Assembly (NCBI GenBank): GCA_051985455.1 | Contig: JBPYEI010000048.1 | Location: forward strand, 19,340-83,339 | Reading direction: 5' to 3' | DNA: 64,000 bases | Origin: Acidimicrobiales bacterium | GTDB lineage: Bacteria; Actinomycetota; Acidimicrobiia; Acidimicrobiales; AC-9 | Shown here: one piece after another, positions 2,872-57,132 of the stretch | How positions within the stretch are numbered: position 1 is the stretch's first letter | How the letters are laid out: the number at the start of each line of letters is the position of its first letter | Translations under genes and position numbers: made by a program | The notes under the pieces: model-generated | What the model saw: the letters and a program-made list of their open reading frames with translations, nothing else | Told to the model about the DNA's origin: nothing | Database searches by the model: none

Positions 2872-2900
2872 TTGACACTGCCGGTCTGGATCGTTAGGTT
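2872..2900 (+). promoter_or_regulatory. Candidate SigA-type promoter for the ferredoxin gene
   Basis: TTGACA (2872-2877), a 17-nt spacer, then TAGGTT (2895-2900), about 35 nt upstream of the proposed start. By-eye match only. Confidence 0.4.
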
Positions 2901-2934
2901 CAGGAACGACCGCGACGTCCCGAGAGGCATGCTG

Positions 2935-3171: not shown

Positions 3172-3284
3172 GGCCCACGCCTGACGACCTGCGCGTCGGC
3201 ATTTAGCCGCTACCAGCCCTCGTTCTCCAGCACGCTCCCGCTCCGCCCCGGCGTCGTGTCCGCCTTGTCGGTGGTGGTCGTTGG

Positions 3285-4100
3285 TCACACCGGGTCGTGG
3301 TGCTGTCCCCTATCGGGCTGGGCAGGTTCAGCCACGAGCAGACGGGCGTGGGTGAGAAAGCCTGTGTGACCGACCATGCGGTGGTCGGGACGGACTGATC
3401 TGCCTTCGACGTGCCACGTCCGCTGGAGCACCTCGAGCGTCTCGGCCAGCCCGAAGGCGCTGTCGTTCAACGTCTCGCGCAGCTGCGTCACCTGACCGAT
3501 CGTGGGCAGGTAGGCGACGAGGATCCCCCCCGGGCGCATGGCGGCTTCGGCGTGCGGGACCACGCGCCACGGCTCGGGAAGGTCCAGTACGACACGGTCC
3601 ACGCCGGTCTCGCCGATGCCCTCGTACACGTCTCGCTGCTCGACACGAAACCGCCGGGCCTGGCGCCCGTCGAGTAGCTGGGTCACGTTGGCCTCGGCCC
3701 GGACGGCGAAGTCCGGTCGCAGCTCGTAGCCGATGACCTCGGCACCGGCGCGCAGCAGCGCCATCGACAGGGCTCCCGAGCCGACACCGGCCTCGACGAC
3801 CCGCACCCCCGGAAAGACGTCGGCCGCCATGAGGATCGCTCCGAGGTCCTTCGGGTAGATGACCTGGGCGCCCCGAGGCATCTCCAGCACCAGCTCCGAG
3901 AGCGTCGGACGGAGGGCGACGTAGCGGGCCCCTGTCGTCGATCGCACTGTCGTACCGACGGGGCTGCCGATCAGCAGGGAGTGCTCGACGATCCCTGAAT
4001 GGCTGTGGAACCGGCCCTGGTTCGTCAACGTGACCAGATGGCGGCGGCGTTTCGAGTCGAGGAGCAGGACCCGGTCGCCGACCGCGAATCGGTCGCTCAA
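3285..4100 (-). CDS. trmI: tRNA (adenine58-N1)-methyltransferase TrmI
   Basis: SAM-binding motif VVEAGVGSGALSMALLRAG and the N-terminal FAVGDRVLLLD beta-domain. The mpa-proximal position matches mycobacterial Rv2118c. I propose the TTG at 4100, which overlaps the upstream stop (TTGA). The longest ORF reaches 4256 but its extra N-terminus is Arg/Pro-rich. Confidence 0.85.
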   Translation of the reverse strand: MSDRFAVGDRVLLLDSKRRRHLVTLTNQGRFHSHSGIVEHSLLIGSPVGTTVRSTTGARYVALRPTLSELVLEMPRGAQVIYPKDLGAILMAADVFPGVRVVEAGVGSGALSMALLRAGAEVIGYELRPDFAVRAEANVTQLLDGRQARRFRVEQRDVYEGIGETGVDRVVLDLPEPWRVVPHAEAAMRPGGILVAYLPTIGQVTQLRETLNDSAFGLAETLEVLQRTWHVEGRSVRPDHRMVGHTGFLTHARLLVAEPAQPDRGQHHDPV

Positions 4101-4327
4101 CGGCGTCCCGCCCGCCGCCCCTTGTGCTTGCCCGGGGGTTCCTCGTGCGTGATCGTGAGGCGGGCGCCTGGTGGGAGCGACTCGGAGTACACGACCTCTT
4201 CGCGACGGATGCCCCACCTCAAAATGGCGAAGGCGGTGAGCCAGACGATCGTCCACACCCGGTTTCCACCCAGAACCCCCCGGCGCATGCCGGTGCTCCT
4301 GAGCCTGCGGAGCAGGCGCTCGAACAC
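4097..4327 (-). CDS. Small membrane protein (76 aa, 1 TM), unknown function
   Basis: ORF with one hydrophobic helix, VWTIVWLTAFAILRWGI. Its stop overlaps the trmI start, and it begins 1 nt after the upstream gene ends. Confidence 0.55.
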   Translation of the reverse strand: MFERLLRRLRSTGMRRGVLGGNRVWTIVWLTAFAILRWGIRREEVVYSESLPPGARLTITHEEPPGKHKGRRAGRR

Positions 4328-4328
4328 C

Positions 4329-4547
4329 TCAGACCCGCCTGATCTCGACCACTGTCGACCGACGGCGGCCCTGCCGACGGCCGAGCACGTAGACGACGGT
4401 GATGATGATCACCGCCCCGGCGATGCCGGCAGCCACGAGGCCCGAACGAGCCGACTCGGTGGTCTGCTCGAACTGACCGCGGATCTGTCGGAACTTGGTC
4501 TCGATGTCCTTGGTCGTGACCCGGTCCTCGGCCTGCGCCGCGCTCAT
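4329..4547 (-). CDS. Small membrane-anchored protein (72 aa), unknown function
   Basis: From ATG 4547, with GGAGGA upstream: MSAAQAEDRVTTKDIETKFRQIRGQFEQ... ending in the TM helix GLVAAGIAGAVIIITVVYVLG. The ATGA overlaps the upstream stop. The 247-aa version in the ORF track is Arg/Pro-rich upstream and overlaps the next gene. Confidence 0.6.
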   Translation of the reverse strand: MSAAQAEDRVTTKDIETKFRQIRGQFEQTTESARSGLVAAGIAGAVIIITVVYVLGRRQGRRRSTVVEIRRV

Positions 4548-4891
4548 GTCTCTGCTCCTCCTTTGGCCCGGGCCTTGGCCCGCCCTCGCCCCACGGCCGC
4601 CAACGCCAGGGCGGCCACGGCCAGACCGCTGAGGGCGCAGATGCCGTAGGGGACCCACGTGAGGTTCCCGGTGAACGTCGCGCCCGTCATCTCCTGGAGA
4701 CCCCGCAGCAGCGCGATCTCCAGCAGGGCGAGCCCCGTCACGAGCACCGCCGAGCCCACCAGGCCGAAGAGGACGAAGCGGCCCAGGTCCTTGATCGGGT
4801 CCAGCGTCTCCTGCCGCAGGTACCGCAGCAGGAGGTCCCTGAGCTCGGACACGAGCGCCGGCAGCGGCCGATCTTCGCTGGTCTCGGGCAT
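4544..4891 (-). CDS. Small integral membrane protein (115 aa, 2 TM); possibly a holin-X-like family, uncertain
   Basis: Two hydrophobic helices, FVLFGLVGSAVLVTGLALLEIALL and VPYGICALSGLAVAALALAAV, and a basic C-terminus. It is the first gene of a translationally coupled string ending in trmI. Confidence 0.65.
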   Translation of the reverse strand: MPETSEDRPLPALVSELRDLLLRYLRQETLDPIKDLGRFVLFGLVGSAVLVTGLALLEIALLRGLQEMTGATFTGNLTWVPYGICALSGLAVAALALAAVGRGRAKARAKGGAET

Positions 4892-5126
4892 CCGCTCCTC
4901 CGATGGGCTCAGCCTTACTATCCCGCCAACGGGTCAGCACGCAAGCATTCGGACAGGCTCCCGGCCTCTGCCTGACACTCGCCTGGTGCTGCCGGCCGGG
5001 GCAGTTGTCCGGTTCCACGTTGCGTCGAAAGTGGCCGCCCGGGTACGGCCTCGGCGCCCGGTTTTCGACCATACGTGGAACCGCCAGGAGTTCCCGAGCG
5101 GTGACGTCGGCCGAGGGCGCCAGCCC

Positions 5127-5774
5127 CTATTCGGGGTCGCCGTCGGACAAGCGGTAGGCGAGCAGGTCGCCGGCCGCCGTGGCGAGGTCGGCCAACAGCC
5201 GCAGACGGCTCTGGACGTCCGGCGTCTCCAGCAGATGCTGGTGATCGACAGGGCCGAGTGGGGCGATGGCGCACAACTGCCACGCCGCGATGGCGGGCTC
5301 GTCGTCGAGGGCGACGGTGGCCGGTACCCCTGGGTGGTCGGCCAGCTCGGTCTGGAGGGCGAGCGCACGGCGTACGGCCCGCGAAGCGAGCTCGAGATGC
5401 TCCATGTCCTCCGCCGTCATCGGGGGATCGGCCACGTCCTCGACCAGGGCGACCGGGTACGGGTCGTCCGGCAGCCAGGCGGTCACCCTGATCTGTCGGG
5501 TGCCGGTCGCCAACAGGACCCACCGTCCGTCCGGGAGCTCGGCCGACTCGGCGATGAGCGCTACCGTGCCGATCGGGAAGCGCGTGTCGCCGCCGCCGAC
5601 CTCCGAGCCGCGTTCGATGAGGACGACCCCGAACTCGCCGTTGCCGGCGAGACAGTCACGCATGAGGGCCCGATAGCGCGACTCGAAGACGTGCAGGGGC
5701 AGGCCCATGTGGGGAAAGAGCACGGTACCCAGGGGGAACATCGGCAACGGAAGCGGCTCCCGCCCTGTCGTCAC
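5127..5774 (-). CDS. LON N-terminal (substrate-binding) domain protein
   Basis: MFPLGTVLFPHMGLPLHVFESRYRALM... is the canonical Lon N-domain opening. GTG 5774 overlaps the upstream stop (GTGA); ATG 5741 is an alternative start. Confidence 0.85.
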   Translation of the reverse strand: MTTGREPLPLPMFPLGTVLFPHMGLPLHVFESRYRALMRDCLAGNGEFGVVLIERGSEVGGGDTRFPIGTVALIAESAELPDGRWVLLATGTRQIRVTAWLPDDPYPVALVEDVADPPMTAEDMEHLELASRAVRRALALQTELADHPGVPATVALDDEPAIAAWQLCAIAPLGPVDHQHLLETPDVQSRLRLLADLATAAGDLLAYRLSDGDPE

Positions 5775-6181
5775 GACCGTGGGCTGAGTAGGTAGGTCGA
5801 GGTGGCTCGGGCGACCATCCGACCCTCGTCGTCGGTGACGTCGGCTTCTACGAACGCCGCCCGCGAGCCGCCCGACACGACCCACGCCGTGCACGTCAGG
5901 GTTGATCCCACGCGAGCGGGCTTGAAGAAGCTGATCTTCAACTCGGCGTTGGCGGAGAAGACCTTGCGCTCCCTGGCCCAGGTGAGCGACGCAGCCCCCA
6001 TGGCCGAGTCGGCGAAGGCCGTGACAAACCCGCCCTGGAGCACCCCCGTCGGGTTGGCGAAGCGTTCATCGGCGACCATGCGCCACATGGTCCGCCCGGG
6101 CTCGGACTTTTCCAGGCACACCATCCCGAGGGTGAGGTCACAGTTGGGCGGGACCTGCACCCTCGGATCGGTCGGCGTCAC
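5771..6181 (-). CDS. PaaI-family hotdog thioesterase
   Basis: 136 aa with the GVLQGGFVTAFADSAMG hotdog motif. Confidence 0.85.
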   Translation of the reverse strand: MTPTDPRVQVPPNCDLTLGMVCLEKSEPGRTMWRMVADERFANPTGVLQGGFVTAFADSAMGAASLTWARERKVFSANAELKISFFKPARVGSTLTCTAWVVSGGSRAAFVEADVTDDEGRMVARATSTYLLSPRS

Positions 6182-6422
6182 GGCCAGACGCTATCCGAGT
6201 ATCTGGCCCCGCCTCCCTGACCCCGTCTCTGTGTGCCTGCGGTCGCCGGCCGCGGGGCCGGCTGGTCGTTGGACGCGACCTCCCGGGCCTCCCGGGGTCG
6301 GCGACCGCCTCGGCAACAACATCGGCAACAGTCGGCAACGAGGAGCGAACACCACGGCGAACACCTCGTGTGACCTGCGTCAGCAGTGATTCGGGCGAAG
6401 GTGTACCTGCTACCGTGATTTC

Positions 6423-7232
6423 GTGCCCCCGGTTCTTGTCGCCGTTTTCGTCGGCCTGCTCACCTGCCAGCTGGCCATCCTCGTCACGACCGTCTATCTC
6501 CATCGGACCCTGGCCCACCGGGCCATGACCCTCTCGCCGTTGGCGACCGCCGTCTTCCGCTTGCTCACGTGGATCACGACCGGCATCCGACCGAGGCAGT
6601 GGGTGGCCGTGCACCGCAAGCACCACGCCTTCACCGACGTCGAGGGCGATCCCCACTCCCCCGTCCTCGAGGGCTATGCCGCTGTGCAGTTCGGCAACGT
6701 GGTCATGTACCGCCGTACTGCTCGAGACGATGCCACCGTCGGCCGGTATGCCCGCGACCTCCGCGCCGACGCTTGGGACCGTGTGCTGTTCGACCATGCC
6801 CTGATCGGCCTGGCGCTGGGCTACGGCGTGCTCTGGCTCATCCTGGGATGGAAGCTGGCGCTGGTCGCAGCCGCCGTCCACACCGTCGTCTACCTCCTCC
6901 TGAGCGCCGCCATCAATGCCATCGGTCACACCTGGGGGCGGCAGCCCTACGACAACCTCGCTCGCAACAACCAGTGGTTGGCCTGGATCACGCTCGGCGA
7001 GGGGCTGCACAACAATCATCACGCCGCGCCGACCTCGGCCCGCTTCGCCCTGGGGCGAGGACAGGTCGACCCGGCGTGGTGGGCTGTGCGGGCGCTCGAG
7101 CGCTCGGGCCTGGCCGTCGTTCGTCACGGTGACGTGAAGCTCAAGAGCCCCCGCCGGGAAGAGTCGGACCGCCCGACGGCCGTCCCCGGAGATCGGCCCA
7201 GCGAGGACGAGCAGCGCGAAGCGGTCGGCTGA
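6423..7232 (+). CDS. Membrane fatty-acid (acyl-CoA/acyl-lipid type) desaturase
   Basis: Three histidine boxes, HRTLAH, HRKHH and HNNHH, with N-terminal TM helices. Confidence 0.9.
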   Translation: MPPVLVAVFVGLLTCQLAILVTTVYLHRTLAHRAMTLSPLATAVFRLLTWITTGIRPRQWVAVHRKHHAFTDVEGDPHSPVLEGYAAVQFGNVVMYRRTARDDATVGRYARDLRADAWDRVLFDHALIGLALGYGVLWLILGWKLALVAAAVHTVVYLLLSAAINAIGHTWGRQPYDNLARNNQWLAWITLGEGLHNNHHAAPTSARFALGRGQVDPAWWAVRALERSGLAVVRHGDVKLKSPRREESDRPTAVPGDRPSEDEQREAVG

Positions 7233-7329
7233 CTGGCGCACCGCGAGCTCGGTGACGCGTGGGCCTGTCGACCACGACGGTCCCCTGCCGGCGGAACGCG
7301 GCCCGTTCGCGCCGGTAGGGTAAGGGGCG

Positions 7330-8526
7330 GTGCCATTCGCCTCCGCGATCTCGGAGCATCCCGTCGGTGCCCACGCCACGGGGGAGGTCGCCGGCCAGGT
7401 GCTCGAGAAGCTCGGGACCGAGCCCGACCTCGTCGTGCTGTTCGTCACGCCTCCTCACGCCGGTGCGCTGGAAGACGCGGCAGGCGCGGTGCGAGCCATC
7501 CTCGAGCCGCGGACCTTGATCGGATGTGCGGCGGAGTCGGTCGCCGGGGTCAACCGTGAGGTCGAGGGCGGGCCCGCCGTCTGCTTGTGGGCGGGGCGGT
7601 TCGGTCGGGTCATCCCTGTGGGCCTCGACGTCGTCACCGCCGGCGGTGTCGGGAGCGCCACCGGCGACGTGGGGGGCGACGGACAGTTGTCTGTCACCGG
7701 GTGGCCGGGCGAGCTGCCGTTCGAGCCCGGAGGCCTGTTCCTGGTGGCCGACCCCTTCACGTTCCCCGTGGAGGCGTTCATCGACTGGGTGGCGCAGGCG
7801 CACCCGGGCCTGCCGGTGATCGGAGGGATGGCGTCAGCTGCCCGGGGCCCGGGCGGCAACCGAATTGTGCTGGACGACACCATGCGGGTGGGTGGCGCGG
7901 TCGGCGCCATCCTCGGGCCCGGGGTCGAGCTGGCTGCCGTCGTCTCGCAAGGGTGTCGTCCCGTCGGGCACCCCCTGGCCGTGACGCGCGCCGAGGGCAA
8001 CGTCGTCTACGAGCTCGGGGGGCAGCCGGCACTCGAGCGTCTGGTCGACCTCGCCCGGCGCGAGCTGGCGGAGCGGGACGTTGCCCTCATCAACGCGGGC
8101 GGACTGCATCTCGGTCGCGTCATCGACGAGCACAAGGCCGAGTTCGGCCGGGGCGACTTTCTCGTCCGCAACGTGATCGGCGCCGACCGCTCGGCCGGCG
8201 CCATCGCCGTCAACGATGTGGTCGAGCTCGGGACCACGGTCCAGTTCCATCTCCGCGATGCGGTTGCCGCCGACGAAGACCTGCGAACCATGCTGGACGG
8301 GCGTCACGCCGATGCGGCCTTGATGTTCACCTGCAACGGTCGGGGCACCCGCCTGTTCGGCGCTCCCCACCATGACGCCGGCGCACTGGCGGAGACGGTG
8401 GGTGAGATCCCCATGGCCGGTTTCTTCGCCGCCGGCGAGCTGGGGCCCGTGGGTGGACGAAATTTTCTCCATGGCTTCACGGCATCCATTGCCCTCCTCC
8501 AGGAGGTGGACGGACGGCGGGAGTAG
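7330..8526 (+). CDS. FIST N/C-domain sensory protein
   Basis: 398 aa. The FIST_N-like N-half has DLVVLFVTPPH, and the FIST_C end has GFFAAGELGPVGGRNFLHGFTASI. Confidence 0.8.
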   Translation: MPFASAISEHPVGAHATGEVAGQVLEKLGTEPDLVVLFVTPPHAGALEDAAGAVRAILEPRTLIGCAAESVAGVNREVEGGPAVCLWAGRFGRVIPVGLDVVTAGGVGSATGDVGGDGQLSVTGWPGELPFEPGGLFLVADPFTFPVEAFIDWVAQAHPGLPVIGGMASAARGPGGNRIVLDDTMRVGGAVGAILGPGVELAAVVSQGCRPVGHPLAVTRAEGNVVYELGGQPALERLVDLARRELAERDVALINAGGLHLGRVIDEHKAEFGRGDFLVRNVIGADRSAGAIAVNDVVELGTTVQFHLRDAVAADEDLRTMLDGRHADAALMFTCNGRGTRLFGAPHHDAGALAETVGEIPMAGFFAAGELGPVGGRNFLHGFTASIALLQEVDGRRE

Positions 8527-29502: not shown

Positions 29503-29511
29503 CGTGGAGAG

Positions 29512-29607
29512 CACACGGGAGCCTGGTGTGACCAGGCTGAGAGGGTGAGCTGACAGCTCCCGACCGTCGGACCTGATCCGGGTAATGCCGGCGCAGGGAG
29601 TCGTGGT
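29512..29607 (+). promoter_or_regulatory. TPP (THI-box) riboswitch
   Basis: CACGGGAGCC...GGCTGAGAGGG...ACCTGATCCGGGTAATGCCGGCGCAGGGAGTCGTG matches the conserved CUGAGA and ACCUGAUCNGGNUAAUGCCNGCGNAGGGA cores. It lies immediately upstream of thiO. Confidence 0.9.
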
Positions 29608-29630
29608 GGCAACCCTCTCGTCCCAGGACG

Positions 29631-48197: not shown

Positions 48198-49997
48198 CTA
48201 GGCCGGGAGGGTGTGGCGCACCGGAGACAGCCGCTCCATCGCGTGCTCGTAGCCCAGCTCGACGAGCTGGTCCAGGCGCTTCCAGTCGAAGAGGCCGAAC
48301 TGCTGCGAGGGCATGCGGACGTAGACGTCCGCGCGCTCGGCGGCCACGTCGACCGTGGTGGCACTGCTCAGCATCGCGCTGCGCACGAGGATCTCCGGGA
48401 GGCGCGGGGGCGAGCTCGTGCTGCCGTGGCGCAGCAGCGCCTCCGGGTCGGGCCGACCCAGGCCTGACCCGGGCGCCCGCAGGTAGCCGTCGGTACTCAC
48501 GTTGCAGGCGATGATGGCGCCCCGCTCCAACCGCTGCATATCGCCGGTAGGCAGGTTGTCGAGCACCCCACCGTCGCACAGCAGCTCACCCTCGTACGCG
48601 ATGGGCGGCGCGATCCCGGGGACCGCCATGCTCGTGCCCACCCACAACGCCAGGGGGCCGTGGTCGTGAACGACGGGCGCCCCGGTCGTCAGGTTGGTGG
48701 AGACACAGAAGAAGGTACGGCGCAGCTCCTCGATCTGCTGGTCCCCGAAGATGTCGGCCAGACGGGCAGCGAACTTTCGCCCTCGGATGAGCGACACCCG
48801 CGGCAGCGCGTAATCGTTCAGAAAGTTGTTGTTGACGAAGGTCTCCCGCGCCACGTGGGTCATCTCGACGCTGTCCAGGCCGAGGGCGAGGAGGGCCGAC
48901 ACGAAGGCACCCATGCTCGTTCCACCGGCCACGTCGATGGGCACTCGCAGCTCCTCGAGAGCCCGGATGAGCCCGATGTGGGCGAAGCCGCGGGCCCCAC
49001 CGCCTCCCAGCACCACGCCGACGCCGTGCCCGGCAACCTGGCGCGCCAGTGACGTCAGCTCCCCCTCGTCCCAGGGGTGGACGAAATAGCGGGCGCGCGC
49101 GCCCGTCACATCCGTCCACGCCCGCGTGTACGGCGAAGAGTCGCCTTCGGGCCGGAGGAACACCAGCTCCACCGGCGCCAGCAGCCCCAGCGAGCGAAGC
49201 TCCTGGAGGATCCGTACCGGTCTGGGCCGGGCGCTGGCCTCGGTCAGCACGAGCACACGATCGGCGTTGTGCAGGCAGCGAAGCGCCCAGGTGTCGCGGT
49301 CGCTGTCCGCCGCGTAGACCACGTAGCGATGCCGACCCTCGAGCTCGTTCATCCAGCCCGCCAGCCTGGTGCTGCCCTCGCCGTCCGAGAGCGAGACCTG
49401 TGATGCGCCGGAGCCGAGCGTGGCGTCGGCGTGCGCAGCGGTGATGAGGCGGGCGTCGGGCCATCCGGAGAGCCCCCGGACGAGCGCCTCGGCCAGCGCC
49501 GTGACGGGGAGGTGCGGTGAAGCGGGGATCACCGCCAGCGTCCCGTGGACCTCCGTGGCGCCTTGCACGCGGGCCCGGCCCTGTTCCCGCAGCCGGACGA
49601 CCATCAGACGGGTCAGCGCGCGCTGTACCACCGGGTGGTGGTCGAGGAAGTGAAGGAAGTCCGTCTTCTCGAAGCGGAGGAGGATGCTGTCGCGCACGGC
49701 GCGGATGGTCGAGGTCCTGGGCTCGCCCATCTGCACGCCGACCTCGCCGACAGGCTCCAGGCGACCGGCGTACCCGAGCAGCTCGCCGTCGGCGGTCTCC
49801 TGCAGTCGTCCCCGGACGACGACGTAGCAGTGGGTGGACGGATCGCCTTGTTTGTACAGGCGGGCGCCGCTACGGAGATCCTGTCTCTCAGCCAGCGCCG
49901 AGAGAGCGTCGAGCTCTTCCTTCTCCAGACCCGAGAACAGCGGCACCTCGGCCAGAACCGACCTGAGATCCACCAGCGACGGCAACGACGCCTTCAC
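48198..49997 (-). CDS. Cyclic-nucleotide-binding-domain patatin-like phospholipase (NTE-like)
   Basis: N-terminal cNMP-binding fold (FSGLEKEELDAL...YKQGDPSTHCYVVVRGRL). Patatin motifs GGGGARGFAHIG, GTSMGA and CDGGVLDNLP. GTG 49997 lies 9 nt after the alaS stop. Confidence 0.9.
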   Translation of the reverse strand: MKASLPSLVDLRSVLAEVPLFSGLEKEELDALSALAERQDLRSGARLYKQGDPSTHCYVVVRGRLQETADGELLGYAGRLEPVGEVGVQMGEPRTSTIRAVRDSILLRFEKTDFLHFLDHHPVVQRALTRLMVVRLREQGRARVQGATEVHGTLAVIPASPHLPVTALAEALVRGLSGWPDARLITAAHADATLGSGASQVSLSDGEGSTRLAGWMNELEGRHRYVVYAADSDRDTWALRCLHNADRVLVLTEASARPRPVRILQELRSLGLLAPVELVFLRPEGDSSPYTRAWTDVTGARARYFVHPWDEGELTSLARQVAGHGVGVVLGGGGARGFAHIGLIRALEELRVPIDVAGGTSMGAFVSALLALGLDSVEMTHVARETFVNNNFLNDYALPRVSLIRGRKFAARLADIFGDQQIEELRRTFFCVSTNLTTGAPVVHDHGPLALWVGTSMAVPGIAPPIAYEGELLCDGGVLDNLPTGDMQRLERGAIIACNVSTDGYLRAPGSGLGRPDPEALLRHGSTSSPPRLPEILVRSAMLSSATTVDVAAERADVYVRMPSQQFGLFDWKRLDQLVELGYEHAMERLSPVRHTLPA

Positions 49998-50006
49998 CCA
50001 CCAGCC

Positions 50007-52595
50007 TCATGTCAGCTCGAGGGTGGTGCGCACCAGGTCGAGGGCCTCGTCGATGCGCGCCGGGTCCCTGCCCCCGGCCAGGGCCACCTCGGGGCCCCTG
50101 CCCCCGCCCCCGCCCACCACCTTGGCCGCTCCGGCCAGCAGCTCGGCCGCCACCAGCCCGGCGTCGGGGGCCACGGCGGCGGCCAGCGCCACCCGCTTGC
50201 TGTCGGGCGAGCCGGCGAGGACGACAGCCCGGACGCCGTCCCTGTCCCGGGTGGCCAGGGCCAGCTCCCGCAGCTGGTCGGGGCCGAGGCCGTCCCGGCG
50301 GGCCACCACCAGGCCGTCCCGGGCGGCGCCGGCCAGGGCGGCGGCCTCGGTGCGCAGCCCGGCCGAGCGCAGGGCCTTGAGCTCGTCGCGGCTGGCGGCG
50401 GCCGAGGCCTGGAGGCGCTCGAGCGCCCCGGTCAGCTCGCCCGGAGTGGTCTGCAGGACCCCCGCCGCCTGGTCCAGGGTGTGCTCCTGGTCCCTGATGT
50501 AGCCGAGGGCCCCGGTGCCGGTGAGGGCCTCCAGGCGCCGGGTGCCCGAGCCGATGGAGGCCTCCGAGACGATCTGGATGGGCCCGATCATGCCCAGGGC
50601 GTCCACGTGCGTGCCCCCGCACAGCTCGACCGAGCCGTCGCCGGCCGACACCACCCGGACCTGGTCGCCGTACTTCTCGCCGAAGAAGGCGATGGCCCCC
50701 ATGTCCTGTGCCTCGGCCCAGCTGGTTTCGGTCACCACCACCGCCTCGTCGGCCAGGACCTGGGCGTTGACGAGGTCCTCCACGGCCTCCGACTGCTCAC
50801 GGGTCAGGGGAGCATGATGGCTGAAGTCGAAGCGCAGGCGGTCGGGAGCGACCAGCGAGCCCTGCTGTTTGACGTGGGGGCCGAGGACCTCCCGCAGGGC
50901 CCAGTGCAGCAGGTGGGTGCCGGTGTGGTTGCGCCTGATGGCCGCCCGGCGGGCGGCGTCGATGGCGGCGTCGGCGGCCTGGTCCGGGCTGATGGTGCCC
51001 TCGGTGAGGGTGGCGTGGTGCACGATCAGCCCCGGCAGGCCGTAGGTGGTATCGGTCACCTCGGCCATCCCGGTCTCCGTGGTGATCGTGCCGGTGTCGC
51101 CCACCTGACCCCCCGCCTCGGCGTAGAAGGGGGTGCGGTCCAGGACGATCTCCACCCCGTCGCCGGTCGAGGACTCGAGCACGCCCAGGACGGTGGCGGC
51201 CGAGCGGGCCTCGCCGTAGCCGGTGAAGGCGGTGGGCCCATGCGCCTCGAGCAGGTCCTTGTAGGCGGCGGTGTCGGCCCCCGCCCCCGCCCCCTTCGCC
51301 GCCTGGCGGGCCCGGGCCCGCTGGTCGGCCATGGCCGCCTCGAAGCCGGCGCGGTCCACCTCCACCCCCGCCTCGGCGGCGATCTCTGCGGTGAGCTCGA
51401 TGGGAAAGCCGTAGGTGTCGTGGAGACGGAAGGCCACCGGTCCGGCCAGGGTCCCGCCCGACACCTTGGCCAGCTCCTCCGCCAGCAGACCCTGGCCGGC
51501 GCGCAGGGTGCGCCCGAAGCGCTCCTCTTCTGCCGCCACCACGGCGGCGATGGTCTCGGCGTTGGTCGCCAGCTCGGGGTAGGCGGGGGCCATGGTGGCC
51601 ACCACCGCTTCCACCAGGGCCGGCCCCACCGCCTTGGTGGCCCCCAGCTGGGCCGCCCAGCGCAGGGCCCGGCGGATGATGCGCCGCAGCACGTAGCCCC
51701 GGGCTTCGTTGGCCGGTAGCACCCCGTCGGAGACGAGGAAGACCATGGCCCGGGCGTGGTCGGCCATGATGCGCAGGCCCACGTCGCCGCGCTCGTCGGC
51801 GCCGTAGGTCATGCCGGTGACGGCCTCGGCGGTGGCCACCACGGGGCGCAACACGTCGGTGTCGAACACCGAGTCGGCCCCGGTGAGCACGGGCAGGAGC
51901 CGCTCCAGCCCCGCCCCGGTGTCGATGTTCTTGGTTGGCAGCTCGCTCACGGTGCCGTCGGGGGCTCGGTTGTACTGCATGAAGACCAGGTTCCATAGCT
52001 CGACGTAGCGCTCGTCGGATCCCGCCGCCGGTCCTCCGCCAGCCCCGTACTTCTCGCCTTTGTCGAAGAAGATCTCCGAGTCGGTGCCGAACGGGCCCAC
52101 GTCGCCCATGGCCCACAGGTTGTCCTCGCCCATGGCCTGGACCCGGCCCGGAGGCACGCCCACCTTGTCCACCCAGATTCGCTCGGCGTCGGCGTCGGAC
52201 TCGTGCACGGTGACCCACAGCCGGTCCCCATCCAGCCCCAAGACCTCGGTGAGCAGCTCCCAGGCCATGGTGATGGCCTCGGGCTTGAAGTAGTCGCCCA
52301 GGCTGAAGTTGCCCAGCATCTCGAAGAAGGTGAGGTGGCGCGTGTCTCGGCCCACCACGTCGATGTCGTCGTGCTTGCCCCGCACCCGCACGCAGCGCTG
52401 CACCGAGGTGAGCCGAGGGTAGGGGGGTACCTGCTCGCCCAGGTAGAAGGGCTTGAGAGGCACCATGCCGGCCACGGTGAACATCACCGTCGGGTCGTTT
52501 GCCACCAGCGGGGCCGAGGGCAGGTAGTGATGGCCCCGCTCGACGAAGTAGTCCACGAAGGCCCGACGCAGCTGATTGGCGTTCGTGACGGTCAT
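50007..52595 (-). CDS. alaS: Alanine--tRNA ligase
   Basis: 862 aa: MTVTNANQLRRAFVDYFVERGHHYLPSAPLV..., a class II core, the editing-domain motif HTGTHLLH, and a C-terminal C-Ala domain. Confidence 0.97.
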   Translation of the reverse strand: MTVTNANQLRRAFVDYFVERGHHYLPSAPLVANDPTVMFTVAGMVPLKPFYLGEQVPPYPRLTSVQRCVRVRGKHDDIDVVGRDTRHLTFFEMLGNFSLGDYFKPEAITMAWELLTEVLGLDGDRLWVTVHESDADAERIWVDKVGVPPGRVQAMGEDNLWAMGDVGPFGTDSEIFFDKGEKYGAGGGPAAGSDERYVELWNLVFMQYNRAPDGTVSELPTKNIDTGAGLERLLPVLTGADSVFDTDVLRPVVATAEAVTGMTYGADERGDVGLRIMADHARAMVFLVSDGVLPANEARGYVLRRIIRRALRWAAQLGATKAVGPALVEAVVATMAPAYPELATNAETIAAVVAAEEERFGRTLRAGQGLLAEELAKVSGGTLAGPVAFRLHDTYGFPIELTAEIAAEAGVEVDRAGFEAAMADQRARARQAAKGAGAGADTAAYKDLLEAHGPTAFTGYGEARSAATVLGVLESSTGDGVEIVLDRTPFYAEAGGQVGDTGTITTETGMAEVTDTTYGLPGLIVHHATLTEGTISPDQAADAAIDAARRAAIRRNHTGTHLLHWALREVLGPHVKQQGSLVAPDRLRFDFSHHAPLTREQSEAVEDLVNAQVLADEAVVVTETSWAEAQDMGAIAFFGEKYGDQVRVVSAGDGSVELCGGTHVDALGMIGPIQIVSEASIGSGTRRLEALTGTGALGYIRDQEHTLDQAAGVLQTTPGELTGALERLQASAAASRDELKALRSAGLRTEAAALAGAARDGLVVARRDGLGPDQLRELALATRDRDGVRAVVLAGSPDSKRVALAAAVAPDAGLVAAELLAGAAKVVGGGGGRGPEVALAGGRDPARIDEALDLVRTTLELT

Positions 52596-52654
52596 CTGAC
52601 CAGCAGCCGATTCAGGTTGCCCTCGCAGTACTGAGAATGGAACATGGAATGTAG

Positions 52655-52728
52655 TGGAGACGACGGGATTCGAACCGACGTTTCTCCTGCCGAAACAGGC
52701 GCTCTAACCGGACCTGAGCTACGTCCCC
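52655..52728 (-). tRNA. Atypical tRNA-like gene: Ala-type acceptor stem (G3-U70, A73), non-canonical anticodon arm, weak T stem; isotype undetermined
   Basis: Minus strand: GGGGACG TA GCTC AGGTCCGGTTA GAGC G CCTG TTTCGG CAGG AGAAAC GTCGG TTCGAAT CCCGT CGTCTCC A. The acceptor arm, D arm and T loop are canonical. The anticodon arm forms only 4 bp closing a 6-nt loop. T-stem pairs are G-U, U-G, C-C, G-C, G-C. No CCA is encoded. Confidence 0.6.
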
Positions 52729-52871
52729 AAAGGATTCACTGTACCGCCGCTGCCTTTGATCCCTGGAGCCTCCCCCCTTTTGTCGCTCACCGACGCTCCT
52801 CACGTCGACTGGTGTCGCGGAGTTGGGATGGTACGCCAGTCTTGCCCGACCCGCAACGAGTACCCTGAATC

Positions 52872-54251
52872 GTGGCCCGTCTTCCTGTTCGGTTGGTCGG
52901 TGACGGGGTGGCGGTGCCCTGTGTCGATGGGCAGGAGCGGCCGTACATCTGTCTCGATGGCGCGGCCTCCACGGCCCCGATGCCCGCCGTGGCCGAGCGA
53001 GTGGCGGAGTTCCTGCCCTGGTACGGCAGCATCCACCGCGCCTCGGGATACAAGTCGAGAGTGGCCACGATGGCCTACGAGGATGCCCGTGCCGACGCGT
53101 TGGCGTTCGCCGGCAAGGCGGATACCTCGCACCTGGCCATCATCTGTCGCAACACGACCGACGCCATCAACCTCCTCGCCTACCGTCTGCGCTTGCGTCA
53201 GCAGGACGTCGTGGTCACGACGGTCGTCGAGCATCACGCCAACCTTCTGCCGTGGGGGCGGGTCGCCCGCCGCCGGTTCGTCGAGTGCGGACCCGAGGGC
53301 ACCTTCTCGGTCGGCGAGGTGTGCGCCGCGCTCGACGAGCGGCCGACGCCGCGTCTGCTGGCCGTCACCGGCGCCTCGAATGTCACCGGTTGGTTGCCGC
53401 CGCTCGACCTGATCCTCGATGCTGCCCACCAACGCGGCATCCCCGTCCTGGTGGACGCTGCCCAGCTCGCCCCGCACGTACCTCTGCCCGCCAACGCCGA
53501 CTTCCTGGCCTGGAGCGGCCACAAGATGTACGCGCCTTACGGCGCCGGCGTGCTGACCGGGCCCCGCGCCGTGTTCGACCAGGGCGAGCCGTTCCTGTTC
53601 GGGGGCGGAGCTGTCGACCTCGTCGACCTCGACGAGGTGGAGTGGACCGACCCCCCGGAGCGAGAAGAGGCCGGCTCCCCCAACGTCGTCGGTGCCGTGG
53701 CCATGGCCACGGCCATGCGGGAGCTCTCCGATATCGGCTGGCCCGCCATCCGGGAGCACGAGCAGGCCCTCGCCCAGCAGCTGCGGACCGGGCTGGCCGC
53801 CGTTCCGGGGGTGACGCTGCTGGGGCCGGCACTGCCGACCCCGACCCTCGCCGTGGCGAGCTTCGTCGTCGAGGAGGTCCCCCACGCCCTGGTCGCCGCA
53901 CGGTTGGCGGCGGAGTACGGCATCGGTGTGCGCCACGGATGCTTCTGCGCTCACCCGTACCTCATCCGACTGCTGGGCCTGTCGCACGACGAGCAAGCCC
54001 TCTACCGCCAGCATGTGCGCCAAGGTGATCGGCGTGTCATCCCGGGCGCCGTCAGGGCGAGCGCGACGATCTCGACGACGGCGGAGGAGGTCGAATTGTT
54101 CCTCGACGCCGTCGCCGACATCGCCAGTGGCAAACCCTCAGTGGTGCCCTTCGCCCAGGACGAGCACACCGGCGATTACTGGCCCGCGCTCGACATGCCG
54201 GGGTGGTCGGCCGCCGATCGCATCTTGGGCGCCAGCTGTGGCCGGGGCTGA
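52872..54251 (+). CDS. Class-V aminotransferase-fold PLP enzyme (cysteine desulfurase/selenocysteine lyase-like)
   Basis: 459 aa with VVTTVVEHHANLLPW and the PLP-Lys motif AWSGHKMYAPYGAGVL. It is divergent from the tRNA-like gene and alaS. Confidence 0.85.
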   Translation: MARLPVRLVGDGVAVPCVDGQERPYICLDGAASTAPMPAVAERVAEFLPWYGSIHRASGYKSRVATMAYEDARADALAFAGKADTSHLAIICRNTTDAINLLAYRLRLRQQDVVVTTVVEHHANLLPWGRVARRRFVECGPEGTFSVGEVCAALDERPTPRLLAVTGASNVTGWLPPLDLILDAAHQRGIPVLVDAAQLAPHVPLPANADFLAWSGHKMYAPYGAGVLTGPRAVFDQGEPFLFGGGAVDLVDLDEVEWTDPPEREEAGSPNVVGAVAMATAMRELSDIGWPAIREHEQALAQQLRTGLAAVPGVTLLGPALPTPTLAVASFVVEEVPHALVAARLAAEYGIGVRHGCFCAHPYLIRLLGLSHDEQALYRQHVRQGDRRVIPGAVRASATISTTAEEVELFLDAVADIASGKPSVVPFAQDEHTGDYWPALDMPGWSAADRILGASCGRG

Positions 54252-55581: not shown

Positions 55582-57132
55582 ATGTCTGCTCAACCGCCCG
55601 AGGTCGGAGCGGCACCCGGGGCGGCGCCGCCGACGATCGTAGGTTCGCCTACCCCGCAGGTCGGCCCGCCTCGAGCCTCCCGGCGGCGGTTCTGGCCGAC
55701 CGGCTTTCGGTTCCATCCGCCGCTCATCACCGTGATAGCCATCGCCGGCGTCGTCTCCACCGCGGTACGGACGGGGGTGTTCCACCACAACATCGCTCAG
55801 ACCGTCGTCTACCAGTACGGGTACGACGGCCGGCAGATCCAGGCCGGGCACTGGTCAACGCTGTTCACCAGCCAGCTGCTGACCCGCAACAGCTTCATGA
55901 CTGCCTCGATCTGCCTGTCGCTGCTCGTGTTTCTGGGCGCGTACGAGGCGCTGGCAGGCAGCTGGCGTGCGGCAATCGTGCTCGTCGTGTGCAGCGTGGC
56001 CGGACTTCTCATCGTCCAGGTCGCGCTGGGGCTGGGCAACGTGCTCGGGAGCACGTGGGCGGAGAAGGAGGTGGGCGTCCTCGACTTCGGTGCCTCTGCC
56101 ATCACTGCGGGCGCGGGGGGAGCTGTGGTCGCTCTGCTGCGGTGGCGATGGCTCCGCGTGGTTGGGGTCCTCATCATCCTCAGCGGCCTCGTAGTCCACA
56201 ACCAGCTGGCCGACTGGGAGCACCTAGTCGCCTTCAGCTCCGGCTACGGGCTGGGTCTGATCCTCGGGCCCAAGCCGGATGTCGCCAGCGTGGAGACCGG
56301 GGCCCGACAGTGGGGGTCCCCGTTTCTGTGGGCACTGATTGCGCCCGCGGCCGTGATCGGTGTCTTCGGAGCCGGCGCTTTCGTCCCCTCGAACGCGGGG
56401 ACCAACTCCGCCCAGGTGATCGACACGACCTACCCGTCGGCGGCGCTACACGCGAACCGGCGCGTCCTGGTCGTCCTGCCGAAGGGTTACGGGCAATCGA
56501 ACCAGCGCTACCCCGTTGTCCAGCTGCTGCAGGGTACCGGCGGTCTCGACGAGGTGGTCGGCTCTCTGAACGTTCCCCAGCTCTCCACCCAGTCGAAGAC
56601 CCCGTTCATCGCTGTGGCCCCTGACGGGACCGGACCGGTGGTCAGTGAGAGCGACTTCGCCAACACCAGCCGCCAGCCGATGGGCACGGCGACTGGGCCA
56701 GAGCTCCGCCAGTGGGTCGACTCGCACTACGCGACCAACGGGACCTGGTACGTCACAGGGCTCTCCGAGGGCGGCAATGGTGCCGCGTACCTGCCGACCC
56801 TCTCTCCCGGTGCCTACCAGGCGACGTGCCCCATGAGCGCCTTCTTCACCGCCCAGTCCCCTGCCTTCGATGGCCAGTCTGCAGCCGTAAAGCAGGCCGG
56901 ATCGCCGATCCTCCACGTCTCGAAGACGGGCCCGCGCACCTTGCTCATCTCCGGGGCGAGCGATCGGGAGCTGGTCGACGCGGCCCATCAGTACACCGCA
57001 GCGATGAACAAGGTCGGGCAACCGAACAACGGCCTGATCCTCAATCCGGGCGGGCACGAGCTGCCGGTCTGGACGCTGGGGATCAAGCAGTGCCTGGGGT
57101 ACTTCCTCCCGACCTCGGGGTTGGGCAAGTAG
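55582..57132 (+). CDS. Fusion: ~7-TM rhomboid-like membrane domain + C-terminal alpha/beta-hydrolase (esterase) domain
   Basis: The membrane half carries HWSTLFTSQLL, a GASAITAGAGG (GxSx) helix and a WEHLVAFSSGYGLG (H...G) helix. The C-half has RRVLVVLPKGYGQSNQRYPVVQLLQG and a nucleophile elbow GLSEGG (GxSxG). The rhomboid assignment is by eye. Confidence 0.75.
   Translation: MSAQPPEVGAAPGAAPPTIVGSPTPQVGPPRASRRRFWPTGFRFHPPLITVIAIAGVVSTAVRTGVFHHNIAQTVVYQYGYDGRQIQAGHWSTLFTSQLLTRNSFMTASICLSLLVFLGAYEALAGSWRAAIVLVVCSVAGLLIVQVALGLGNVLGSTWAEKEVGVLDFGASAITAGAGGAVVALLRWRWLRVVGVLIILSGLVVHNQLADWEHLVAFSSGYGLGLILGPKPDVASVETGARQWGSPFLWALIAPAAVIGVFGAGAFVPSNAGTNSAQVIDTTYPSAALHANRRVLVVLPKGYGQSNQRYPVVQLLQGTGGLDEVVGSLNVPQLSTQSKTPFIAVAPDGTGPVVSESDFANTSRQPMGTATGPELRQWVDSHYATNGTWYVTGLSEGGNGAAYLPTLSPGAYQATCPMSAFFTAQSPAFDGQSAAVKQAGSPILHVSKTGPRTLLISGASDRELVDAAHQYTAAMNKVGQPNNGLILNPGGHELPVWTLGIKQCLGYFLPTSGLGK

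Follow-up and report, generated by a model that had tools for sequence, protein, structure and literature searches.

An anticodon-less tRNA-Ala-like RNA upstream of alaS in an Acidimicrobiales genome: a candidate non-decoding alanine carrier

What might a bacterium do with a tRNA that has the acceptor of an alanine tRNA and no anticodon? This question is raised by a 74-nt element that lies just upstream of alaS in a stretch of Acidimicrobiales DNA of 64,000 nucleotides (the window). A sequence-only reading of the element mentioned three possibilities: a mimic by which alanyl-tRNA synthetase (AlaRS) regulates its own synthesis, a dedicated alanine donor for a transferase of the DUF2156 type encoded nearby and, as the null hypothesis, a decaying tRNA pseudogene. 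We argue below that the element is most likely a functional derivative of tRNA-Ala in which the anticodon loop has been swapped for a stable UUCG-capped hairpin, and that it most likely carries alanine for the neighbouring MprF-type transferase without taking part in decoding, which would make it a dedicated carrier RNA of a new kind.

Structure and conservation of the element

The minus-strand sequence of 74 nt is exactly as originally quoted. Infernal aligns it end to end with the tRNA model RF00005 (model positions 1-71) at 43.8 bits, where the gathering score is 29 and E=5e-6 is computed for the 64-kb window; this is a full-length match above threshold, yet it has no normal 7-nt anticodon loop. 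ARAGORN labels it 'tRNA-??? anticodon (tc)', i.e. with an "anticodon" of two bases. It is the only tRNA-like match that ARAGORN, Rfam and a covariance model of the element's own family find in the window. The main points of the structural reading are borne out: the acceptor has alanine identity, a usable anticodon is missing, the T stem is abnormal and the element is linked to alaS.

The acceptor stem, GGGGACG/CGUCUCC, contains G3:U70 and is followed by A73. G3:U70 with A73 is the dominant identity signal for AlaRS, which ignores the anticodon. The element has the full alanine identity set (G1-C72, G2-C71, G3-U70, G4-C69 and A73). Its D arm is normal (GCUC/GAGC with an 11-nt loop including GG), and so is its T loop, UUCGAAU. 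The anticodon arm is replaced by CCUGU-UUCG-GCAGG, a stem of 5 bp with a closing U-G pair and a UUCG tetraloop. When this arm was previously described as 4 bp around a 6-nt loop, the nucleotides were the right ones; it is better read as 5 bp with UUCG. In relatives the stem is 5 or 6 bp long, and UUCG caps it every time.

The T arm is irregular as well. The register preferred by Infernal gives a 4-nt variable loop, AGAA, and a T stem ACG[NN]GG/CCCGU with five Watson-Crick pairs and a 2-nt bulge, which is UC in the window (ACG[UC]GG/CCCGU); the alternative register contains G-U, Y-G and a Y-C mismatch. Pairs 49-65, 50-64 and 51-63 are non-canonical in both registers, as had been claimed, but the Infernal register was not part of that claim. 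A regular 5-bp T stem is missing, and the irregularity is kept in all nine family sequences described below. The same three pairs set the affinity of a tRNA for EF-Tu. The folding energy of the single sequence carries no signal (z = 0.19), so that the case for the element stands on its covariance-model score and its conservation and not on thermodynamics.

Other RNA classes do not fit. A T-box, YrlA, tmRNA or leader family was sought in an Rfam scan of 52560-52900, which lists tRNA alone with an E-value limit of 10 (a second match of the same clan, overlapping and with a lower score, was suppressed beside it). The element shares with the tRNA-like domain of tmRNA a G3:U70 acceptor, charging by AlaRS (for the element, predicted) and the lack of an anticodon. 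However, tmRNA acts on the ribosome, interacts with EF-Tu and SmpB, and comprises an mRNA-like ORF as well as pseudoknots. The 74 nt of the element close into a cloverleaf with neither tag ORF nor pseudoknots, and ARAGORN reports no tmRNA. The bacterial Y RNA YrlA (RF02553) is also a noncoding RNA with a tRNA-like module, starting GGGGCCGUAGCUCAG, but it does not form a closed acceptor/T cloverleaf of the element's type and it works with Rsr and PNPase. No YrlA match was found in the window element or in the relatives scanned.

A damaged tRNA gene would be expected to look like this, with its anticodon lost and its T stem irregular. Conservation speaks against this explanation. Ten distinct relatives with an AlaRS identity of 75-89% were recovered, and nine of them have the element in the orientation of alaS, 59-73 nt upstream of that gene. 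The members of this family (family 1) are closed cloverleaves of 74-76 nt and score 39-47 bits on RF00005. Mean pairwise identity of the element over nine sequences is 0.92. Second codon positions of alaS reach the same value, whereas its third codon positions (0.82), the 5' leader (0.78) and the spacer (0.73) fall below it. All 22 modelled pairs are formed in each of the nine; acceptor, D and T stems are invariant, as is the alanine identity set, and the GG of the D loop and the T loop, which form the elbow, are retained. Variation in the anticodon arm is confined to its stem of 5 or 6 bp, where G-C, G-U and A-U are exchanged and every substitution preserves its pair. In none of the nine is there a 7-nt loop with a 3-nt anticodon; UUCG takes its place in all of them, and since the members were mostly found through AlaRS, UUCG was not imposed here by a search pattern. 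The invariance of UUCG, with only the stem below it free to vary, suggests selection for a rigid arm and not for a decoding loop. The element is thus under strong purifying selection, with the very "defects" of the supposed pseudogene retained in nine sequences while alaS third codon positions diverge, and decay is rejected as an explanation, with next to no chance left to it. Covariation adds nothing: one compensatory change was seen, which 173 of 500 shuffles matched, and such statistics are uninformative because the stems are invariant.

The 3' end in the window reads A73-CUA, so that CCA is indeed not encoded there; the statement does not extend to the family, as CCA is encoded in four of the nine sequences and CUA or CUG in the rest. 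This mixture makes the 3' end look like that of a genuine actinobacterial tRNA gene. One relative (L088, AlaRS 75% identical) has alaS and no trace of either element or leader. Another 80 alaS loci, drawn from GTDB genomes and more remote (N-terminal region of AlaRS at most 60% identical), have neither the tRNA-like element (by ARAGORN, the family covariance model and, for the first 14, Rfam) nor the DUF2156 gene.

The alaS leader and the divergent operon

The gap of 59 nt between element and alaS and their shared orientation had been given correctly, as the coordinates of alaS confirm (Table 1). The gene encodes the catalytic, editing (tRNA_SAD) and C-Ala (DHHA1) domains. In one relative (L089) it is followed by ruvX-mltG-aroE, a housekeeping arrangement. 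In the window, a gene for a patatin-like protein lies 9 nt downstream of alaS; it is found in some family members, ruvX being in its place in L089, and it is uncertain whether it belongs to the system.

Table 1. Features around the element, with window coordinates
Feature	Coordinates	Strand	Basis
Anticodon-less tRNA-Ala-like RNA	52655..52728	-	RF00005 43.8 bits; ARAGORN tRNA-???; 9-sequence conservation
alaS, full-length alanyl-tRNA synthetase, 862 aa	50007..52595	-	PF01411 9e-180, PF07973, PF02272
cNMP-binding / NTE-P-loop / patatin-like phospholipase	48198..49997	-	Pfam
Spacer motif ACUGCGAGGGCAACCUGAAUCGGC between tRNA-like and alaS AUG	52606..52629	-	Conserved in alignments
5'-leader hairpin P1, GUCGACG-UGAGGAG-CGUCGGU	52789..52809	-	RNAalifold consensus
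Promoter-like TTGCGG-17 nt-TACCAT	52828..52856	-	Invariant columns in 9-sequence alignment; inferred
TACCCT -10-like hexamer	52861..52866	+	Invariant GGGTAC in alignment
SufS-like class V PLP enzyme, cysteine desulfurase family	52872..54251	+	PF00266 3e-75; TIGR01979 264 bits, below model cut-off
Stand-alone DUF2156/LPG_synthase_C protein, 398 aa	54373..55569	+	PF09924 1e-48; bifunc_MprF 1e-42
Membrane-anchored esterase	55582..57132	+	PF00756 7e-10; ~5 N-terminal hydrophobic helices (hydropathy scan)

About 100 nt upstream of the element, the hexamers TTGCGG and TACCAT are conserved at a distance of 17 nt, and they are presumed to be the promoter of a transcript that carries both the tRNA-like RNA and alaS. 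Transcription would then start near 52821 and the 5' leader would be about 93 nt long. This putative promoter was read from the alignment; a strict sigma-70 and terminator scan of 52300-53300 reported nothing. The TACAGT hexamer to which promoter function had been attributed is present but unconserved. Between element and alaS, no conserved promoter or terminator was seen in the scan or in the nine-sequence alignment. On the other strand, the divergent SufS-like gene starts with GTG, and the TACCCT hexamer precedes this codon by 5 nt, which implies that the mRNA of that gene would be leaderless. The divergent -10 boxes, TACCAT and TACCCT, are about 28 nt apart and face away from one another.

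The flanks of the element are conserved too. The pairs of hairpin P1 in the leader are retained in eight or nine of the nine sequences, with two compensatory changes (RNAalifold). P1 is followed by a purine run, AAAAGGGGGGA (~52771-52781), with predicted pairing to the CCUUU directly 5' of the tRNA-like RNA. On the other side of the element, the spacer motif is noncoding, as relatives have either 10 or 14 nt between it and the AUG. The alaS AUG has no obvious Shine-Dalgarno sequence nearby. A helix sequestering this AUG is predicted by RNAalifold from the spacer, not from the tRNA-like RNA, with little covariation support.

The SufS-like gene is the first of the divergent operon and is present in every relative whose contig reaches that far. 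Enzymes of the cysteine desulfurase family convert cysteine into alanine and sulfur. The DUF2156 gene comes next. Its product consists of LPG_synthase_C, the aminoacyl-tRNA-dependent transferase domain of MprF, and it is more similar to the alanyl-phosphatidylglycerol synthase (AlaPGS) of P. aeruginosa (PDB 4v34; 106 bits, 2e-29) than to LysPGS (4v36; 53 bits). A hydropathy scan of this protein found no transmembrane segment and no N-terminal flippase domain; with no membrane domain, it might act on something other than a membrane lipid. The esterase gene starts 12 nt further on. SufS-like, DUF2156 and PF00756 esterase genes diverge from the element in all six distinct family contigs that are long enough, but because family members are close relatives this synteny counts as about one observation. 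Independent support must then come from elsewhere, and it amounts to one further lineage, found on two contigs.

A second lineage and further cases

The two contigs (L110 and L120) carry a 67-nt anticodon-less tRNA-like element with G3:U70 and A73, which scores 46.9 bits on RF00005. This gene stands alone: it has a TAAGGT -10 box to itself, no other gene follows it, and there is no alaS near it. At a distance of 156 nt lies the gene of a 974-aa MprF-like protein (Metallophos-TM-LPG_synthase_C), followed in L110 by a TM-anchored PF00756 esterase of the same family as the esterase of the window. An aspartate 4-decarboxylase gene (754 bits) adjoins the element; this enzyme produces L-alanine. We asked if the two families of elements share an ancestor more recent than tRNA-Ala itself. 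The covariance model of family 1 gives the L110 element 49 bits and ordinary tRNA-Ala genes 51 bits, and common ancestry was rejected. As the L110 element is no closer to the family model than tRNA-Ala is, the two are treated as separate derivations from tRNA-Ala. The neighbourhood of LPG_synthase_C and esterase therefore recurs beside two unrelated lineages of elements.

A homologue that is 58% identical to the L110 MprF-like protein (L185) has a truncated AlaRS of 441 aa as its divergent neighbour, and other homologues are fused to LysRS, so that private parts for aminoacylation have been recruited repeatedly in this enzyme family. No tRNA-like element was found at the MprF-like loci L185 and L186. 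The same is true within 8 kb of four homologues of the window DUF2156 protein from other Acidimicrobiales (L181-L184; 63% and 54% identity). A tRNA-like RNA is then not a general partner of the DUF2156 subfamily, which does not generally need one.

Additional elements were sought in metagenome DNA with a pattern that required TTCGG after the D stem, so that the UUCG cap common to these additional cases is in part imposed by the search. Most of the 89 matches were YrlA, tRNA-Arg(UCG) or tRNA-Ala(GGC) in tRNA arrays. Anticodon-less G3:U70 elements on three contigs (L143, L158 and L179), all of them short, have no recognisable LPG_synthase_C nearby. In L158 the element follows a 306-aa ORF at a distance of 5 nt, and the operon also encodes a glycosyltransferase and an amine oxidase. 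This ORF was considered as a cryptic DUF2156 or Fem enzyme and dismissed, having weak GNAT matches only (E ~0.02) and an hhalign probability of 1%.

What the RNA may do

Several suggestions can be made regarding the function of the element. The one that we prefer, while thinking it about evenly poised between right and wrong, is that of a non-decoding RNA which is charged with alanine, is of no use to the ribosome and feeds the neighbouring MprF-type DUF2156 transferase. The element would be transcribed together with alaS from the conserved promoter and released by the tRNA processing machinery, with RNase P acting at its 5' end and RNase Z or exonucleases, along with CCA addition, at its 3' end. 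AlaRS would charge it with alanine by reading G3:U70, A73 and the elbow, regardless of the anticodon. Once charged it could not decode, since it has no anticodon, and the irregular T stem probably weakens EF-Tu binding as well. If all this is correct, the resulting Ala-RNA would constitute a pool of activated alanine kept from translation. The likeliest consumer would be the LPG_synthase_C transferase encoded with the membrane esterase in the divergent operon, and the alanine would be passed on to a lipid or to another acceptor. Each of these steps (processing, charging, evasion of EF-Tu and use by the transferase) is deduced from sequence features.

An RNA reduced in this way could still suit such an enzyme. 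Not only full tRNA-Ala but also its acceptor-TΨC minihelix is accepted by AlaPGS, and genes of aminoacyl-phosphatidylglycerol synthases often have a hydrolase or esterase gene as their partner (PMC6103681). Only the acceptor helix of Ala-tRNA is required by the MprF-type family. The suggestion of an alanine donor for DUF2156 is strengthened by the second, unrelated G3:U70 element next to LPG_synthase_C and an esterase with no alaS in sight, and is weakened by the four homologues that have no tRNA-like RNA. It also has to be said against a carrier that the family-1 element sits in the alaS leader and that another gene separates it from DUF2156.

That location, together with the conserved flanks, fits a role in the expression of alaS. 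A cis-acting operator would be formed if excess AlaRS bound the tRNA-like RNA in the 5' UTR through G3:U70, A73 and the elbow and thereby lowered translation or stability of alaS mRNA, with uncharged tRNA-Ala competing; this follows the logic of E. coli thrS and would be compatible with a carrier role. Mimics of tRNA in synthetase mRNAs are an established mechanism (PMC9976931). Constant co-orientation 59-73 nt upstream of alaS in family 1, the lack of a recognisable promoter or terminator in between, conserved leader hairpin and spacer motif, the possible AUG-pairing helix and the AUG without an obvious Shine-Dalgarno sequence are all in keeping with it. Nevertheless, the spacing to the AUG is variable (in L081 by a 14-nt insertion), the poorly covarying AUG-sequestering helix is weak evidence, and L088 manages alaS without a leader of this kind. 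A complete L-shape, with 3' ends with and without CCA, exceeds what a binding decoy needs, and the comparable L110/L120 element stands outside any 5' UTR. The idea of an autoregulatory mimic has therefore gained little, and we consider it unlikely. Mimics of the thrS type resemble the element in that synthetase 5' UTRs contain a likeness of the cognate tRNA (PMC9976931). What the known mimics imitate is the anticodon arm, however, and they extend into the ribosome-binding region, whereas here a whole tRNA without anticodon stays clear of the start region at a variable distance.

A more modest role would be that of a processing or stability module, in which the element provides a cleavage signal for RNase P and RNase Z or a protective 5' structure for alaS mRNA, comparable to tRNA-like punctuation or mascRNA, and the released RNA has no function. 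Its place in the alaS leader and intact recognition features for RNase P and the CCA-adding enzyme would suit such a module. It would have no need of an invariant G3:U70/A73 alanine identity, though, and it would account neither for the stand-alone gene of L110/L120 nor for the recurrent LPG_synthase_C-esterase neighbourhood, nor for an alaS that does without the element in L088; we think it very unlikely. Rather improbable, too, is a charged carrier that serves some other consumer, such as a cell-wall transferase of the Fem/MurM type, an enzyme of natural-product synthesis or a PLP enzyme modifying an RNA-bound aminoacyl group. The structural evidence for it is the same as for a carrier serving DUF2156, PLP enzymes flank both families (SufS-like and aspartate 4-decarboxylase, respectively), and in L158 the tRNA-like RNA closely follows an ORF with weak GNAT-type matches. 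But the similarity of the L158 protein to DUF2156 is not significant, and LPG_synthase_C is the only recognisable aminoacyl-tRNA-dependent transferase near either family.

Full-text searches aimed at such an element turned up no published description of a tRNA-like RNA upstream of alaS, nor one of a carrier dedicated to MprF-type enzymes. A carrier feeding the DUF2156 transferase would have parallels in known systems. The tRNA-dependent aminoacylation of lipids and cell-wall precursors competes with EF-Tu for aminoacyl-tRNA. To our knowledge, the weakly EF-Tu-binding tRNA-Gly of staphylococci is the only well-studied solution to this competition. In S. aureus, EF-Tu sequesters the proteogenic Gly-tRNAs from FmhB, while the non-proteogenic tRNA-Gly escape EF-Tu (PMC7826273). 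As would be the case for the element, a tRNA lineage is reserved there for an envelope transferase of the GNAT fold (FmhB/FemA/FemB, making pentaglycine), and changes in the T and D arms cut its use by EF-Tu, which keeps envelope synthesis apart from translation (PMC7826273). The staphylococcal RNAs differ in having a normal anticodon loop and ordinary tRNA genes, whereas the element has no anticodon, is predicted to carry alanine, has an MprF-type (DUF2156) enzyme as candidate consumer and has its gene in the alaS leader. LysX, an MprF homologue fused to LysRS, makes the Lys-tRNA that it uses with its own LysRS domain (PMC10580965), and in AlaDAGS-PesT of Actinobacteria an esterase is encoded in the operon of an MprF homologue (PMC6103681). 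Compared with these systems, the loci described here add alaS or, in L185, a truncated AlaRS, plus an esterase. We know of no dedicated RNA carrier described for LysX or AlaDAGS-PesT, for which use of normal tRNA is reported.

A broader proposal, to which we give somewhat less than an even chance, is that some Actinomycetota encode obligately non-ribosomal carrier RNAs. These would be anticodon-less derivatives of tRNA-Ala that have kept processing and charging by AlaRS and that form private alanine-activation modules with MprF-type transferases, esterases, alanine-producing PLP enzymes and alaS or a truncated AlaRS. Such modules would supply a substrate pool for alanylation of lipids or the envelope beyond the reach of EF-Tu and the ribosome, and the family-1 RNA may in addition couple alaS expression to the pathway. 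If true, this would be the cleanest natural case of a tRNA that has become an amino-acid carrier and nothing else, and would mean that tmRNA is not alone in exploiting the indifference of AlaRS to the anticodon. Synthetic biology would gain a ready-made orthogonal carrier, and MprF-family enzymes, which are antibiotic-resistance factors, would have a previously unknown partner.

A conserved tRNA-like element without an anticodon

The 74-nt sequence upstream of alaS that the sequence-only reading described as tRNA-like was exact when re-read from the window, and the Rfam tRNA model matches it end to end (43.8 bits against a gathering score of 29; E = 5e-6, computed for the whole window). The ARAGORN call is 'tRNA-???', with an anticodon two bases long. 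Neither ARAGORN, Rfam nor a family covariance model finds another tRNA-like sequence in the 64 kb window. From the position of alaS, 59 nt separate the end of the element from the downstream ATG, which is on the same strand, as had been proposed.

The fold was refined from the Infernal alignment (see table). Recognition by AlaRS depends on G3:U70, A73 and the elbow, not on the anticodon. The T stem had been read with a G-U pair, a U-G pair and a C-C mismatch. That register fits the variation in the family, but a bulged one fits equally well, so it is not unique; pairs 49-65, 50-64 and 51-63 are abnormal in either. No CCA is encoded after the element in the window, again as claimed. The folding energy of the single sequence is unremarkable (z = 0.19). 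Because its anticodon loop and T stem fail as those of a canonical tRNA, the element is not one. ARAGORN and Rfam scans led us to reject tmRNA, YrlA and a T-box leader, and position a thrS-type operator.

Features of the window and of retrieved loci (L labels), with the element's fold from the Infernal alignment
Feature	Source	Position	Strand	Remarks
tRNA-like element	window	52655-52728	-	
Acceptor stem	element			7 bp, G3:U70, then A73
D arm	element			normal stem, 11-nt loop with GG pair
Anticodon arm	element			5-bp stem CCUGU/GCAGG, UUCG cap
Variable region	element			4 nt, AGAA
T stem	element			ACG[UC]GG/CCCGU, five Watson-Crick pairs and 2-nt bulge
T loop	element			UUCGAAU, canonical
Promoter-like TTGCGG-17 nt-TACCAT	window	52856-52828	-	invariant in family
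Divergent -10-like boxes	window	52828-52866		back to back, ~28 nt apart, both invariant across family
5'-leader hairpin	window	52809-52789	-	conserved
Motif GAGGGCAACCUGA	window	52629-52606	-	noncoding, conserved; in spacer 52596-52629 between element and AUG
alaS	window	50007-52595	-	full-length; catalytic, editing and C-Ala domains
Patatin-like phospholipase gene	window	48198-49997	-	cNMP-binding/NTE-P-loop/patatin-like
TPP riboswitch	window	29505-29616	+	RF00059, 61.8 bits, full length; unrelated to element
alaS without element	L088	4399-7113	+	AlaRS 75% identical
tRNA-like	L110	3618-3684	-	inside module 1834-8181
MprF-like LPG_synthase_C gene	L185	7001-9883	+	960 aa
Truncated AlaRS gene	L185	5539-6864	-	441 aa, catalytic domain only
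Hybrid tRNA	L095	6459-6531	+	in array of >20 tRNA genes
tRNA-like	L158	146-215	-	70 nt, no anticodon, G3:U70, 6 bp + UUCG, 51 bits
G3:U70 tRNA	L164	2881-2954	-	8-nt anticodon loop; ARAGORN anticodon of four bases, cggc

In a search of 5.8 billion proteins, the AlaRS belongs to a tight clade at 75-89% identity, after which the next sequences fall to 63%; DUF2156 homologues at 83-85% identity carry the source label Acidimicrobiales. We compared the contigs of eight clade AlaRS proteins and two from a DNA-pattern scan, all of metagenome origin. Alignment of the upstream regions places the element 59-73 nt before alaS in nine distinct sequences (window, L081, L082, L086, L087, L089, L090, L091 and L129; L175 equals L129 over the element). 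Acceptor, D and T stems are invariant, G3:U70 and A73 included; the GG of the D loop and the T loop are also preserved, and all 22 modelled pairs form in each sequence. Only three places vary: part of the D loop, the two bulged T-stem pyrimidines (UC, CU or CC) and the anticodon stem, which has 5 or 6 bp with G-C/G-U/A-U exchanges under a constant UUCG cap. Mean pairwise identity of the element (0.92) equals that of alaS second codon positions (0.92) and exceeds that of third positions (0.82), 5' leader (0.78) and spacer (0.73). The element is thus under selection, and this conservation excludes the decaying pseudogene that had served as null hypothesis. With stems that do not vary, covariation statistics carry no information (one compensatory change, matched in 173 of 500 shuffles). 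A73 is followed by CCA in four of the nine sequences and by CUA or CUG in five, a mix typical of actinobacterial tRNA genes dependent on CCA addition.

One close relative lacks the element: at L088, alaS directly follows an AbiEi_4-like gene and has no tRNA-like, leader or spacer motif, which suggests that a rearrangement removed the element. Scanning the AlaRS N-terminus over one genome per GTDB species gave 80 more distant loci, all at most 60% identical (Acidimicrobiales, Solirubrobacterales, Streptomyces and others); no tRNA-like sequence precedes alaS at any of them by ARAGORN or the family covariance model, nor by Rfam on the first 14 loci.

Transcription and neighbouring genes

The entire intergenic region is conserved in the family alignment. 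The sequence TTGCGG-17 nt-TACCAT is likely the promoter of the element transcript, giving a leader of ~93 nt; the TACAGT hexamer proposed earlier as a -10 box is not conserved. In the leader, base pairing is predicted between a purine run and the CCUUU that directly precedes the tRNA-like. Scanning between element and alaS AUG gave no promoter-like or terminator-like site, and co-transcription of alaS with the element is therefore probable. In the spacer motif a Shine-Dalgarno-like GAGGG is followed after 4 nt by CUG, and no Shine-Dalgarno sequence lies near the alaS AUG. This CUG is in frame with the AUG in relatives with a 61-nt spacer; in L081 and the window a 7-codon uORF starts at it, and the UGA of this uORF overlaps the AUG (AUGA).

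Of the two divergent boxes, TACCAT faces the tRNA-like and alaS, and TACCCT a SufS-like gene. TACCCT lies on the opposite strand 5 nt before that gene's GTG, which suggests a leaderless mRNA and a control region common to both operons. The divergent operon runs from the SufS-like gene through DUF2156/LPG_synthase_C to a PF00756 esterase, and every distinct family contig long enough to cover it, six in all, has it; a DUF2156 gene lies within 6 kb of alaS at none of the 80 distant loci. The window DUF2156 protein is stand-alone, with no membrane segment, and the esterase has about five N-terminal helices. The DUF2156 protein has homologues among solved MprF catalytic domains and scores 106 bits with the alanyl-PG synthase of P. 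aeruginosa versus 53 bits with a lysyl-PG synthase. No tRNA-like was found within 8 kb of homologues 63% and 54% identical to it, which speaks against a universal link. On the other side of alaS, the patatin-like gene follows after 9 nt in the window and L081-L086; at L089 ruvX-mltG-aroE, in the usual order, takes its place.

Anticodon-less elements elsewhere

The metagenome DNA pattern GGGGNNGTAGCTCA...AGAGC...TTCGG gave 89 loci, the majority YrlA Y-RNAs (RF02553), archaeal-type tRNA-Arg(UCG) and tRNA-Ala(GGC) in tRNA arrays. Among those searched for alaS (all but nine, L175 being one of the nine) only L129 has it. Further anticodon-less G3:U70 cloverleaves, their UUCG cap imposed by the pattern, occur at L110/L120, L143, L158 and L179; the last three have short or uninformative surroundings. 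The L158 element comes 5 nt after a 306-aa ORF that has weak GNAT-type matches only and whose operon also contains a family-2 glycosyltransferase and an amine oxidase. Several other observations may be mentioned. Many soil-metagenome YrlA genes (L093, L098, L101 with two tandem copies, L132, L133, L160, L171 and about 20 similar) have 5' GGGGCCGUAGCUCAG...AGAGC and a UUCG hairpin in common with the tRNA-Ala-like elements. The L095 tRNA combines an Ala-type acceptor (G3:U70, A73) with arginine anticodon UCG and is possibly mistranslating or recoding. In Pro-Ala-Phe-Glu clusters, tRNA-Ala(GGC) has the anticodon loop UCGGCAG, with C33 replacing the near-universal U33 (pattern-match sites L106, L134-L138, L145-L147, L150, L161, L167).

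The L110/L120 element (67 nt, 46.9 bits, G3:U70, A73, 4-bp arm with UUCG) is nearly identical in two contigs of the same gene arrangement despite diverged flanks. A conserved TAAGGT -10 box of its own and the absence of a downstream gene make it a stand-alone RNA gene. A 974-aa Metallophos-transmembrane-LPG_synthase_C protein starts 156 nt away on the opposite strand, directly followed by a membrane-anchored PF00756 esterase, the pairing seen in the window. On the other side lies an aspartate 4-decarboxylase (754 bits, above the equivalog cut-off), whose reaction product is L-alanine. The window and L110 LPG_synthase_C proteins are too distant for any BLAST link, and ordinary tRNA-Ala genes match the model of the alaS-upstream family at least as well as the L110 element does. 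The association of tRNA-like and LPG_synthase_C is thus independent of shared ancestry of the loci, in effectively two lineages.

The L185 protein is 58% identical to that of L110. Its divergent neighbour, 136 nt away, is the truncated AlaRS; no tRNA-like lies within 7 kb. The pair resembles LysX, the LysRS-MprF fusion, with alanine in place of lysine, and other L110-protein homologues are fused to LysRS in the manner of LysX. Private components for aminoacylation have thus been gained repeatedly in this enzyme family.

Possible functions

Several suggestions can be made regarding what the element does. The one we favour, at about an even chance, is a processed, alanine-charged carrier that is the private donor for the DUF2156 transferase. 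Processing would free the element from the alaS leader transcript, and alanine would be attached to it. Unable to decode and probably a weak EF-Tu binder, it would give its alanine to the transferase, whose product the membrane esterase would turn over or relay. An acceptor-TΨC minihelix serves alanyl-PG synthase as efficiently as the whole tRNA-Ala does, and hydrolases or esterases are common partners of aaPGS genes (PMC6103681).

In the main rival, compatible with a carrier role, the element would be a cis-acting operator of alaS to which AlaRS binds, as the sequence-only reading also proposed. Position upstream of alaS and conserved flanks are what such an operator would have; however, spacing to alaS varies, L088 has alaS without the element, and the second family is stand-alone. 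We consider it unlikely. A carrier serving some consumer other than the DUF2156 enzyme seems rather improbable, a pure processing signal slightly more so, and a pseudogene, given the conservation among the nine sequences, hardly credible.

In its proposed mode of working, the donor for the transferase comes closest to the non-proteogenic tRNA-Gly of staphylococci: in S. aureus EF-Tu sequesters proteogenic Gly-tRNA from FmhB, and non-proteogenic species escape (PMC7826273). With LysX, an MprF homologue with built-in LysRS, it has a common theme. Unlike all described cases, the element lacks any anticodon, would be specific for alanine and is tied by its neighbourhood to an MprF-type enzyme; full-text searches and a 2023 review of tRNA identity and mimics yielded no published description of such an element. 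It would be a dedicated non-translational tRNA, and a highly interesting one should its carrier function be confirmed.
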